Of a DNA stretch of 64,000 bases, positions 36,001 through 54,000 are shown piece by piece. Position 1 is the stretch's first letter, and every line of letters begins with the position of its first letter. This DNA is from Escherichia coli. GTDB lineage: Bacteria > Pseudomonadota > Gammaproteobacteria > Enterobacterales > Enterobacteriaceae. The position numbers are program-made. The stretch lies in the NCBI RefSeq assembly GCF_003334785.1, contig NZ_QOWV01000002.1; one strand, given 5' to 3'.

Positions 36001-39000
36001 TCTGGTGCTGAAGCCTCCTGGGGCATCGCTAACGGCTGGTCGTTATATGGCGGTGCGCTGGGTGATGAAAACTATCAGTCTGCGGCGCTGGGCGTCGGTC
36101 GCGATTTGTCTACCTTCGGCGCGGTCGCGTTTGATGTTACTCATTCGCATACCAAACTGGATAAAGACACCGCTTATGGCAAAGGTTCGCTGGACGGTAA
36201 CTCCTTCCGTGTGAGTTATTCCAAAGACTTTGACCAGCTCAACAGCCGCGTCACTTTCGCTGGATATCGCTTCTCGGAAGAGAACTTTATGACCATGAGC
36301 GAGTATCTGGATGCCAGTGACAGCGAAATGGTCCGTACGGGCAACGACAAAGAGATGTACACCGCCACTTATAACCAGAACTTCCGCGATGCGGGTGTTT
36401 CGGTTTATCTCAACTATACCCGCCATACCTACTGGGATCGTGAGGAGCAGACAAACTACAACATCATGCTCTCCCACTATTTCAATATGGGCAGCATTCG
36501 TAATATGAGCGTTTCCCTGACTGGCTACCGCTACGAGTATGACAACCGGGCGGATAAGGGCATGTACATTTCGCTCAGTATGCCGTGGGGCGACAACAGT
36601 ACCGTTAGCTATAACGGCAACTATGGCAGTGGGACGGACAGCAGCCAGGTCGGTTATTTTAGCCGTGTCGATGACGCGACTCACTATCAGTTGAACATCG
36701 GCACCAGTGACAAACACACCAGCGTTGATGGCTACTACAGCCATGATGGTTCGCTGGCGCAGGTTGACCTCAGTGCGAACTACCATGAAGGGCAATACAC
36801 CTCTGCGGGCTTGTCGTTACAGGGCGGCGCAACGCTTACTACCCAGGGCGGCGCACTTCACCGTACCCAGAATATGGGCGGGACACGCCTGCTGATTGAT
36901 GCCGATGGCGTTGCCGATGTTCCGGTGGAAGGTAACGGGGCTGCTGTTTATACCAATATGTTTGGTAAAGCCGTCGTTTCTGACGTTAACAATTATTATC
37001 GCAATCAGGCGTATATCGACCTCAACAAATTGCCGGAAAACGCCGAAGCAACCCAGTCGGTGGTGCAAGCCACGCTAACTGAAGGAGCCATTGGCTACCG
37101 CAAATTTGCCGTCATCAGTGGTCAAAAAGCGATGGCGGTGCTGCGTTTACAAGATGGCAGCCATCCACCGTTTGGCGCAGAAGTAAAAAATGATAACGAG
37201 CAGACAGTGGGCCTTGTCGATGATGACGGTAGTGTCTATCTGGCTGGGGTGAAACCTGGCGAACATATGAGTGTGTTCTGGAGTGGTGTTGCGCATTGCG
37301 ATATCAACCTGCCGGACCCGCTGCCTGCCGATCTGTTTAACGGCTTGTTACTGCCATGCCAGCATAAAGGCAACGTCGCGCCGGTTGTTCCTGATGACAT
37401 AAAGCCTGTCATTCAGGAGCAGACGCAACAGGTGACACCCACCGATCCCCCTGTTTCTGTTTCAGCTAACCAATAACGTGATTAAGGAATGATCCATGTC
37501 TGATTTACTTTGCTCTGCCAAATTGGGTGCTATGACGCTGGCGTTACTGCTTAGCGCTACCAGTTTGTCTGCCCTGGCGTCTGTAACGCCAGATCGTACC
37601 CGTTTGATATTTAATGAAAGCGACAAATCAATCAGCGTGACGCTGCGTAATAACGATCCGAAACTCCCTTATCTGGCTCAAAGCTGGATTGAAGATGAAA
37701 AGGGTAACAAGATCACCTCGCCGTTAACTGTGCTGCCGCCAGTGCAACGCATCGATTCAATGATGAACGGGCAGGTAAAAGTGCAGGGAATGCCGGATAT
37801 CAACAAATTGCCAGCCGATCGTGAAAGCATGTTCTACTTTAACGTGCGCGAGATCCCGCCAAAATCAAACAAACCCAATACCCTGCAAATCGCGCTGCAA
37901 ACGCGTATCAAGTTGTTCTGGCGACCAAAGGCGCTGGAAAAGGTCAGTATGAAAAGTCCGTGGCAGCACAAGGTGACGCTCACCCGCAGCGGTCAGGCAT
38001 TTACCGTCAATAACCCAACGCCGTACTACGTGATTATCAGCAACGCCAGTGCGCAGAAAAACGGTAATCCAGCTGCAGGGTTCTCGCCTCTGGTCATTGA
38101 GCCGAAAACCACGGTACCGCTGAATGTGAAAATGGATAGCGTACCGGTGCTGACTTACGTCAACGACTTTGGCGCACGGATGCCGCTGTTCTTCCAGTGC
38201 AATGGCAACAGCTGCCAGGTGGATGAAGAGCAGAGCCGCAAAGGCTGATGACGGGGGGAGTTATGAGTCAAAAGTTTGTAGTGGGCGCAGGGCTGCTGGT
38301 ATGCAGTGTCTGTAGTTTATCTGCTATGGCTGGTAGTAAACCCGTGGATTTAATTCTGCGCGTGTTGGTCGATGCTCCGCCACCCTGTTCAATCAAGGGC
38401 AGCCAGGTAGAGTTCGGCAATATGATTGCTGATAACGTTGATGGCACCAATTATCGGCAAGATGCGAAATACACGTTGAACTGCACAAACAGTCTTGCTA
38501 ACGACTTGCGGATGCAACTTAAGGGCAATACCTCAACGATTAACGGCGAAACGGTACTCAGTACCAATATCACCGGGCTGGGCATTCGGATAGAAAATAG
38601 CGCCGATAACTCATTGTTTGCCGTCGGTGAAAATAGCTGGACGCCATTTAATATCAATAACCAGCCACAGTTGAAGGCTGTACCTGTGAAGGCAAGCGGG
38701 GCGCAACTTGCTGCGGGCGAGTTTAACGCCAGTTTGACCATGGTGGTGGACTATCAATGAGAAAGACTTTCTTAACCCTGCTTTGTGTCAGTAGCGCCAT
38801 AGCTCATGCTGCTGATGAAGACATCACCTTTCACGGGACATTATTGTCACCGCCAACCTGTAGCATCAGCGGTGGTAAAACCATTGAAGTCGAATTTCGC
38901 GATCTCATTATCGACGACATCAACGGCAACTATGGTCGTAAAGAGGTGCCATATGAACTCACTTGTGACTCGACGACCCGTCATCCAGATTGGGAGATGA

Positions 39001-51000: not shown

Positions 51001-54000
51001 CGGTTGCATAACACGCGGATCAATCCCTTTAACCCGCCGTTGATAAAGCTGATTAAGAATATCCTCGGCCTGGGCAGAAGAAAGCGATGATTGCGCAGAA
51101 AGACCATATTTTTGCTGGATATATGCCGATAACGCCGCCAGTTCACTGGCATCTAAAGGTTGTTTTAGCGTCATCTGTAGTGATTCCAGCGTCGGCGTAT
51201 TTTGCTGGCTTAGCGTCTGACGCGCCTGTAGCCAGGTCACCAGATGGTTAAACAGTTTCGCTGGAATTAACTCGCCATCTTTCACCCCGGAAAGTTCCAG
51301 CATCGATTGCCAGATCTGTTTGCTGGGTTCCCCCGTTGCCGCCGCAAGTTTGGTCACCAGCTGTTTTAGCGCATTGTGCTCCGCCGGTAATAAAGGACGG
51401 TCGGTCGCCTCGCGCTGCTGTGGTTGCGGAATAACCATCTTCCCTTCCTGCAACAGGGTGAGAATGGTTTTTAATTGCTCCGGTGAGAGCTGATTCAGCG
51501 GCGTCTGACCAAAGTTATGACGGATATAATCCGTGACCGCCTGACGATTATTCCCCAGACGTAAATACTCCCCTAATTGCGCTAAAAGCTGGCGGGCAGA
51601 ATGGCTTTTTTGCGCGGCCAGCAGACGTTGCGCCAGATTATGCTCAGCGGCAGGGAAGTGACGCGAAAGCAGCGGTGAATCTCCCGACAGACCAATATCG
51701 TGCCTGATACCCGCCCACAGTTCTGCTCTTTGCTGTTGCGTCAGTGAGGTCACTTTCGTCATTAAGCTTTCCAGCGAAGTACGTTGCTGACTGGATAAAG
51801 GCTGATTGCCCGTGCCAGACGGCAGATTATCTCCCTGACCTGGTGGTTGCCCAGGAGGAGGGCCGGAAATAGGTTGTATCATTACGTATCCTTATACCTG
51901 AAATCTTCGCAAGTATGCCTGGCCGCGAGATTATGGCACACTTGTCCGGTTAACTCTCGTCTCATACAGGTAACACAAACGTGAAAATCCTTGTTGATGA
52001 AAATATGCCTTATGCCCGCGACTTATTTAGCCGTTTGGGTGAGGTGACCGCGGTTCCCGGGCGTCCAATCCCCGTCGCTCAACTGGCAGACGCGGATGCG
52101 CTGATGGTGCGTTCGGTCACGAAAGTGAATGAATCTTTGCTGGCAGGAAAACCCATTAAATTTGTTGGCACTGCCACTGCGGGGACCGACCATGTCGATG
52201 AAGCATGGTTGAAGCAGGCGGGAATTGGTTTTTCCGCTGCACCTGGCTGTAATGCGATTGCGGTGGTGGAATATGTTTTCTCCTCCCTGCTGATGCTTGC
52301 CGAACGCGATGGATTTTCACTGTACGACCGTACGGTGGGGATCGTGGGCGTTGGTAACGTTGGACGTCGATTGCAGGCGCGACTGGAAGCGTTAGGGATT
52401 AAAACCTTACTTTGCGATCCGCCTCGCGCCGACCGTGGGGATGAGGGTGATTTCCGCTCGCTGGATGAGTTAGTCCAGCGCGCGGATATTCTGACTTTCC
52501 ATACGCCACTCTTTAAAGATGGTCCGTACAAAACGCTACATCTGGCGGATGAAAAACTGATCCGTAGCCTGAAGCCCGGAGCGATTCTGATTAACGCCTG
52601 CCGTGGCGCAGTCGTCGATAATACTGCGTTGCTGACCTGCCTGAATGAAGGCCAGAAGTTAAGCGTAGTGCTGGATGTCTGGGAAGGCGAACCGGAACTC
52701 AACGTCGAGCTGCTGAAAAAAGTGGATATCGGCACGCCGCATATCGCAGGCTATACCCTGGAAGGTAAAGCACGCGGTACTACGCAAGTGTTTGAAGCTT
52801 ATAGCAAGTTTATTGGGCATGAACAGCACGTTGCGCTGGATACATTACTGCCTGCGCCAGAGTTTGGTCGCATTACGCTGCATGGCCCGCTCGATCAACC
52901 GACGCTGAAAAGGCTGGTGCATTTGGTGTATGATGTGCGCCGCGATGACGCACCGCTGCGTAAAGTCGCCGGGATACCGGGTGAGTTCGATAAACTGCGC
53001 AAAAACTATCTTGAGCGCCGTGAATGGTCATCTCTGTATGTAATTTGTGATGACGCCAGTGCGGCATCATTGCTGTGTAAACTGGGTTTTAACGCCGTTC
53101 ATCATCCGGCACGTTAATCTCTTCTTCATGCTCTCTGCTGTAACATTGGCAGGGAGCTTTGCTATTTCTGGAGTAAACCACCATGTCTGAAGGCTGGAAC
53201 ATTGCCGTCCTGGGCGCAACTGGCGCTGTGGGCGAAGCCCTGCTTGAAACGCTGGCTGAACGTCAGTTCCCGGTTGGGGAAATTTATGCACTGGCACGTA
53301 ACGAAAGCGCAGGCGAACAACTGCGCTTTGGTGGTAAGACAATCACCGTGCAGGATGCCGCTGAATTCGACTGGACGCAGGCGCAGCTGGCATTTTTTGT
53401 CGCAGGCAAAGAAGCTACCGCTGCCTGGGTTGAAGAAGCGACCAACTCAGGTTGCCTGGTGATCGACAGCAGTGGATTGTTTGCTCTCGAACCCGACGTA
53501 CCGCTGGTGGTGCCGGAAGTAAACCCGTTTGTACTGACAGATTACCGGAACCGGAATGTCATCGCCGTACCAGACAGTCTGACCAGCCAGCTGCTGGCGG
53601 CACTGAAACCGTTAATCGATCAGGGCGGTTTATCACGTATCAGCGTTACCAGCCTGATTTCAGCCTCCGCCCAGGGCAAAAAAGCGGTCGATGCGTTAGC
53701 GGGGCAGAGTGCGAAATTGCTCAACGGCATTCCGATTGACGAAGAAGATTTCTTCGGGCGTCAGCTGGCGTTCAACATGCTGCCGTTACTGCCGGATAGC
53801 GAAGGTAGCGTGCGTGAAGAACGTCGTATCGTTGACGAAGTACGCAAAATCCTGCAGGACGAAGGGCTGATGATTTCGGCTAGCGTCGTCCAGGCACCGG
53901 TATTCTACGGTCATGCCCAGATGGTCAACTTTGAAGCTCTGCGTCCACTGGCAGCAGAAGAAGCGCGTGATGCGTTTGTTCAAGGCGAAGATATTGTGCT

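Follow-up and report, generated by a model that had tools for sequence, protein, structure and literature searches.

The window analyzed here, 64,000 nucleotides (nt) of Escherichia coli contig NZ_QOWV01000002.1 (assembly GCF_003334785.1), holds a series of neighboring genes whose ends overlap by 1, 4 or, in one pair, 11 nt. The operons concerned are emrKY, fadIJ, the yfc chaperone-usher fimbrial operon, aroC-mepA-yfcA-epmC-yfcL, pdxB-usg-truA and folC-dedD. Taken as a whole, these overlaps are very probably the ordinary tight junctions of consecutive genes in E. coli operons, with translational coupling that is at most partial. The window is the reverse complement of K-12 MG1655 positions ~2,425,832-2,493,510, at 99.86-99.94% identity except in 17252-22095, and its segment 38000-52000 matches all 5,426 complete E. 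coli genomes by megablast. The first and last 18 nt of 53 K-12 RefSeq coding sequences (CDSs) were placed on the window. Both ends were exact for 50, each of which is an intact open reading frame (ORF) with proper start and stop codons and the same extent as its K-12 counterpart. Annotations from the Prokaryotic Genome Annotation Pipeline (PGAP) were compared in strain VE-F10 for the junctions up to flk and in an O157:H7 strain for those from mepA/yfcA to folC/dedD.

Eight overlaps had been listed in the original prediction, and all eight are present at the coordinates it gave, with gene ends identical to those of K-12 RefSeq and, where compared, of PGAP. On the plus strand, a TAA stop shares one base with the ATG of the next gene (TAATG) at emrK/emrY (11335) and fadI/fadJ (30673), on both of which K-12 and PGAP concur, at mepA/yfcA (44272) and at usg/truA (54196). 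Also on the plus strand, a 4-nt overlap, ATGA, joins the TGA of yfcR to the ATG of yfcQ (38757-38760) and the TGA of yfcQ to the ATG of yfcP (39242-39245). The seventh same-strand pair, folC/dedD (58148-58158, plus strand), shares 11 nt; dedD begins with GTG, and the folC stop, TAA, sits within dedD codons 3-4 (AGT AAG). The eighth pair, yfcJ/flk, is convergent. A size of 1 to 4 nt, as had been claimed, is thus correct for seven of the junctions, and the proposed linkage through ATGA or TAATG for the six same-strand pairs other than folC/dedD, which has neither motif. The span given for the set, 38757-51882, is wrong, as five of the eight junctions fall outside it.

Three overlaps of the same kind had been missed. 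The TGA of yfcS and the ATG of yfcR share one base at 38248 (plus strand, TGATG), as do the TAA of yfcA and the ATG of epmC at 45081 (plus strand, TAATG). On the minus strand, the TGA of evgL and the ATG of evgA overlap by 4 nt (ATGA, 9753-9756), evgL being a nine-codon leader ORF (9753-9782, minus strand; b4781 in the K-12 annotation). The genes evgA and evgS, 4 nt apart, form another tight junction that had gone unlisted. To the same class belongs yfcP/yfcO (39779-39785, plus strand), where a single spacer base separates the yfcP TAA from the yfcO ATG, a spacing of +1. With a TTG at 39768 as an alternative start, yfcO would overlap yfcP by 14 nt; the ATG at 39783 is the one chosen in both annotations. 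All told, the -4 NTGA or -1 TRATG geometry is found at emrK/emrY, fadI/fadJ, yfcS/yfcR, yfcR/yfcQ, yfcQ/yfcP, mepA/yfcA, yfcA/epmC, usg/truA and evgL/evgA, but not at folC/dedD (-11). The overlapping same-strand neighbors are in each case two intact annotated genes with named products.

The original prediction had offered its gene boundaries for comparison with curated annotations, and the start sites do not differ: K-12 ends agree throughout, and PGAP ends wherever compared. An annotation artefact, with the true starts lying downstream at fadJ codon 3, yfcR codon 6, yfcP codon 5 or yfcA codon 9, is improbable. In-frame ATGs do occur close downstream in these four genes, and a start at Met6 of YfcR (MTGGVMSQKF...) would give an N-terminus closer in appearance to a signal peptide. 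The junction between the chaperone gene and the yfcR-like gene lies at +10 in the O157:H7 allele of the yfc operon, as against -1 in the window. The portion of the TRAINSPOTTER start-site table consulted holds no entry for truA, fadJ, yfcA, epmC or emrY, which for fadJ, emrY and yfcA leaves room for a misplaced start. However, curated K-12 and the independent PGAP take the overlapping start in every compared case. At eight of ten junctions (emrY, fadJ, yfcR, yfcQ, yfcP, yfcA, truA and evgA), among them those of all four genes in question, no in-frame start lies 5' of the overlapping codon; epmC and dedD have solely a TTG further upstream in frame. The overlapping start is moreover conserved for truA, dedD, yfcA, epmC, yfcQ and yfcP. 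For the dedD GTG it is confirmed experimentally by Ribo-RET, INRI-seq and the N-terminal peptide MASKFQNR (Table S1 of PMC13245402). The least secure of the overlapping starts is that of yfcR, with its other ATG at codon 6. The gene ends are rightly placed, and the downstream start shares 1, 4 or, in folC/dedD, 11 nt with the upstream 3' end.

Among the 35 co-directional adjacent pairs in the window, six have a spacing of -1, three of -4 and one of -11. Nine pairs at exactly -1 or -4 give P ~1e-6 under a flat null from -20 to +40, well beyond chance. Within -8 to +6 fall 12 of the 35 pairs, compared with 707 of 2,987 pairs (24%) genome-wide in E. coli (PMC10666635), a difference with a binomial P of 0.10. 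We therefore reject an unusual enrichment of overlaps in this window, whose share of tight junctions is typical of E. coli. The motif taken alone is no evidence for a junction, because ten of 50 stop codons carry a -1-type ATG or GTG and only six of these open real genes; the other four (at emrY, dsdC, sixA and purF) bear it by chance with no gene behind. As a source of the listed junctions, chance ATGA or TAATG at stops was likewise rejected, since each start opens an annotated gene of 162-714 codons.

We then turn to how the junctions fare in other species. One genome per species was scanned with a degenerate coding pattern anchored 30 nt inside truA, so that the usg/truA junction itself could not bias the search, and 120 loci were found. 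In 97 of these species' loci usg lies directly upstream of truA, and 81 of the 97 keep the 1-nt overlap, at Usg identities of 54-98%. The usg stop in the 81 is TGA in 42 and TAA in 39, and the length of the TruA N-terminus varies, with starts from 18 to 81 nt before the anchor. Because the overlap is kept while both the stop codon and the N-terminal length change, the truA start is pinned to the usg stop, and it is so across about 29 genera. The overlap is not kept in Superficieibacter and Lonsdalea (+2), in Orbales (among them Gilliamella at -14) or in an endosymbiont whose usg is truncated. At the loci of the same scan, the -11 arrangement of folC/dedD ([AG]TGGCNAGTAA) is kept in 36 of 43 species; the spacing is 0 in two Serratia species and Vibrio mexicanus, -8 in three species and +15 in Hafnia alvei. 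An 11-nt overlap, the same length as that of folC/dedD, also occurs at ygaZ/ygaH in K-12 (2810344-2810354; locus L126 345-355). Elsewhere, mepA/yfcA is at -1 in all three other loci with both genes (two Citrobacter, one E. coli), and yfcA/epmC is at -1 in three of four, the fourth, Enterobacter sp. Ag1, having +1.

The yfc junctions can be compared within E. coli, where this operon is dimorphic; in many genomes the megablast match to the window begins only at smrB (40675). In the O157:H7 allele (locus L125 5732-8830, corresponding to window 37496-40604) the subunits are 42-55% identical to those of the window and the chaperone 85%. The ATGA overlaps of yfcR/yfcQ and yfcQ/yfcP nonetheless persist between proteins that are 47-55% identical (47-49% for YfcR and YfcQ), and the +1 spacing of yfcP/yfcO is present as well. 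The two ATGA overlaps arise because YfcR and YfcQ both end in VDYQ, the glutamine codon CAA being followed by TGA. The upstream fimbrial usher gene yfcU (34831-37476, plus strand) is an intact 881-codon ORF here and a pseudogene in the K-12 MG1655 annotation.

Where same-strand genes overlap, a terminator and a promoter cannot fit between them, and we infer that each such pair is read from one mRNA. The operon structure that the overlaps had been taken to indicate is supported in this respect, and in two pairs by published measurements (Burkhardt et al., PMC5318159 supplement). For usg, translation efficiency (TE) is 1.05, ribosome density 207 and mRNA 196, and for truA 0.39, 77 and 198; for folC the values are 0.91, 145 and 159, and for dedD 0.40, 62 and 154. 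The matching mRNA levels in each pair support their co-transcription. The downstream-to-upstream ribosome-density ratios calculated from these values, 0.37 for usg/truA and 0.43 for folC/dedD, indicate that any coupling is not 1:1. The genes yfcA, mepA, fadI, fadJ, emrY and epmC (as yfcM) are absent from this table, in which no search was made for emrK or the fimbrial genes of yfc. A literature search for translation data on hisT/usg/pdxB gave nothing useful.

Translational coupling of the window's pairs is plausible, and likely rather than certain, judging from spacing, conservation and ribosome-density ratios; its mechanism is disputed. In such coupling, the ribosome that ends the upstream gene would promote initiation on the next one. 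It might melt local mRNA structure at a start site located within coding sequence, or it might re-initiate after a shift of 1-4 nt, aided in some pairs by a Shine-Dalgarno (SD) sequence within the upstream gene (fadJ, dedD, truA). Coupling would be partial, given a downstream ribosome density of about 0.4 times the upstream one in the two pairs with published data. In E. coli and in prokaryotes generally, no spacings are commoner than -4 and -1, and the efficiency of coupling peaks between about -4 and +3 (PMC12548453). The -4 and -1 pairs of the window lie within this range, and folC/dedD at -11 lies outside the optimum. Overlaps occur in more than 30% of operon pairs in E. coli (PMC7538156). 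When overlapping E. coli pairs were examined in reporter tests with premature stops, four of five proved to be coupled (PMC6728339), and an SD motif inside the upstream gene was needed for re-initiation in four of five tested pairs (Huber et al., PMC6728339).

In the window, fadJ has a strong SD, GGAGG, within the fadI 3' end, dedD a strong GAGGAG, and truA an AGGAG 11-19 nt upstream. Predicted duplex energies with the anti-SD are correspondingly strong for these three (-9.3, -8.9 and -6.9 kcal/mol), moderate for yfcQ, yfcP and epmC (-6.2, -5.9 and -5.5 kcal/mol), and weak for emrY, yfcA and yfcR (-3.0, -3.1 and -3.2 kcal/mol). The weak-SD starts would probably depend most on the upstream ribosome. 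The predicted accessibility of the start region (-15 to +6) is lower at overlapping or close starts than at others (0.40 vs 0.52, P = 0.004).

The closest known systems are the -4 NTGA and -1 TRATG pairs described genome-wide (PMC6728339, PMC10666635, PMC12548453). Their geometry is identical (ATGA, TAATG, TGATG), they too join same-strand operon genes, and their SD, where present, is inside the upstream gene, as in the window; no structural difference was found, but folC/dedD falls outside both main classes. Short overlaps are enriched among subunits of complexes (PMC10666635), which fits emrKY, fadIJ and the fimbrial subunits, so that three of the window's operons encode complex or fibre subunits as that enrichment predicts. 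The classic coupled E. coli pairs trpB-trpA, galT-galK, prfA-prmC, rpmI-rplT and rplK-rplA are likewise close or overlapping cistrons on one mRNA, and upstream translation raises downstream expression 1.7- to 7-fold in reporters (PMC7538156). In those pairs the dependence was demonstrated by nonsense mutations or reporters, whereas in the window it is deduced.

Several observations weigh against coupling as the reason for these junctions. Depletion of ribosome recycling factor left the relative translation of overlapping pairs unchanged genome-wide, and its authors, Saito et al., disfavor re-initiation as the main mechanism and favor de novo initiation (PMC7538156). One overlapping pair, bioB/bioF, was uncoupled in reporter tests (PMC6728339). 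The 2.3-2.7-fold difference in ribosome density, and in TE, within usg/truA and folC/dedD fits independent initiation. In K-12 the operons emrAB and fadBA, paralogous to emrKY and fadIJ, specify complexes of the same types (a major facilitator superfamily (MFS) pump with its adaptor, and a fatty-acid oxidation complex), and their junctions, +16 and +9 nt, do not overlap, so that overlap is not required for making such complexes. For mepA/yfcA/epmC, usg/truA and folC/dedD, whose products are not known to form complexes with one another, a stoichiometric rationale is absent. Base composition, which differs between coding and intergenic sequence, confounds the accessibility difference and leaves it as weak support. 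A conserved TRATG could result from purifying selection acting jointly on a stop and a start with a base in common, rather than from selection for coupling.

Much of this would be expected if the overlaps were neutral by-products of compaction, NTGA and TRATG evolving easily and free 30S subunits initiating de novo at each gene's own ribosome-binding site, with no meaningful reliance on upstream translation. A review explains the frequency of -4 as probably due to its ease of evolving (PMC12548453), the SD sequences of fadJ, dedD and truA are good in their own right, and the yfc ATGA falls out of a conserved C-terminal motif. We nevertheless consider this reading unlikely. The SDs of emrY, yfcA and yfcR are very weak and their starts buried in coding sequence, making efficient independent initiation less likely. 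The truA start has stayed at the usg stop in spite of changes in the stop codon and N-terminus, and four of five, later three of three, tested E. coli pairs (-4 to +1) were strongly coupled in a distance-dependent manner (PMC6728339, PMC12548453, PMC10666635). Ordinary tight operon junctions with partial coupling are the reading that we prefer.

For usg/truA and folC/dedD we raise a more specific and rather doubtful suggestion, that they are conserved translational valves of fixed ratio, in which ~0.4 of the terminating ribosomes would pass to a functionally unrelated downstream gene. If this were true, selection on the valve would explain why the truA start is pinned to the usg stop across Enterobacterales, and also why the folC stop is kept within dedD codons 3-4.

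The convergent overlap stands apart. The stops of yfcJ (plus strand, ending at 50890) and flk (minus strand, ending at 50887) share the palindrome TTAA at 50887-50890, read as TAA on each strand, so the predicted 4-nt overlap is there. An overlap between genes on opposite strands can say nothing about coupling or operon structure; the original prediction had used it for gene boundaries only. Like other convergent pairs with overlapping stops, it is a case of genome compaction, two stops on one palindrome, and it is evolutionarily labile: a -4 YTAR overlap occurs in 13 of 26 species with both genes, as CTAA, TTAG or CTAG in other genera, and the rest have gaps of 5-86 nt or inserted genes. Two genomes labeled 'Enterobacter sp.' (L011, L088) have yfcJ and flk 56 nt apart with a hairpin, CCCTCTCC...GGGAGAGGG, between them.

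The sole consequence of the shared stops is that the yfcJ and flk transcripts each have to terminate within the neighboring gene. A terminator-like hairpin lies at 50938-50954 (plus strand), ~50 nt past the yfcJ stop and inside the flk 3' end. It is conceivable that the arrangement is regulatory, the gene of an MFS transporter and that of a flagellar regulator affecting each other through antisense RNA or transcriptional interference. A terminator would find no intergenic space here, the hairpin within flk is the only terminator-like one after the yfcJ stop, and Escherichia, Citrobacter, Salmonella arizonae and Pluralibacter all have the -4 YTAR overlap. We find this highly improbable, however, as a terminator scan around yfcJ/flk gave four matches against 1.9 +/- 1.6 in shuffled sequence, not above expectation, and half of the species with both genes have a gap or inserted genes. 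Since these species do without the overlap, it is dispensable.

Outside the junctions, the window differs from K-12 at 17252-22095, a CPS-53 (argW-linked) prophage remnant that carries an acyltransferase-family gene and several hypothetical genes; this variant is common to only 5 of 5,426 complete E. coli genomes (at least 80% coverage). For fadL (27186-28526, minus strand), the K-12 RefSeq CDS is 1,341 nt and that of PGAP 1,317 nt, with the PGAP start 24 nt downstream. In the yfdF-fadL intergenic region (26821-27185), VE-F10 appears from the coordinate offset to lack 24 nt present in the window and in K-12.

The phenomenon itself is already known: -4 and -1 start/stop overlaps have been catalogued genome-wide and repeatedly reviewed. 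Our additions are modest, namely the cross-genus conservation figures for usg/truA, folC/dedD and yfcJ/flk and the origin of the yfc ATGA in a shared VDYQ terminus. The overlaps confirm the gene ends and the operon grouping of the original prediction, which is of use as quality control for the rest of the window, and the published ribosome profiling is a reminder that the overlap of two genes does not imply their equal translation.

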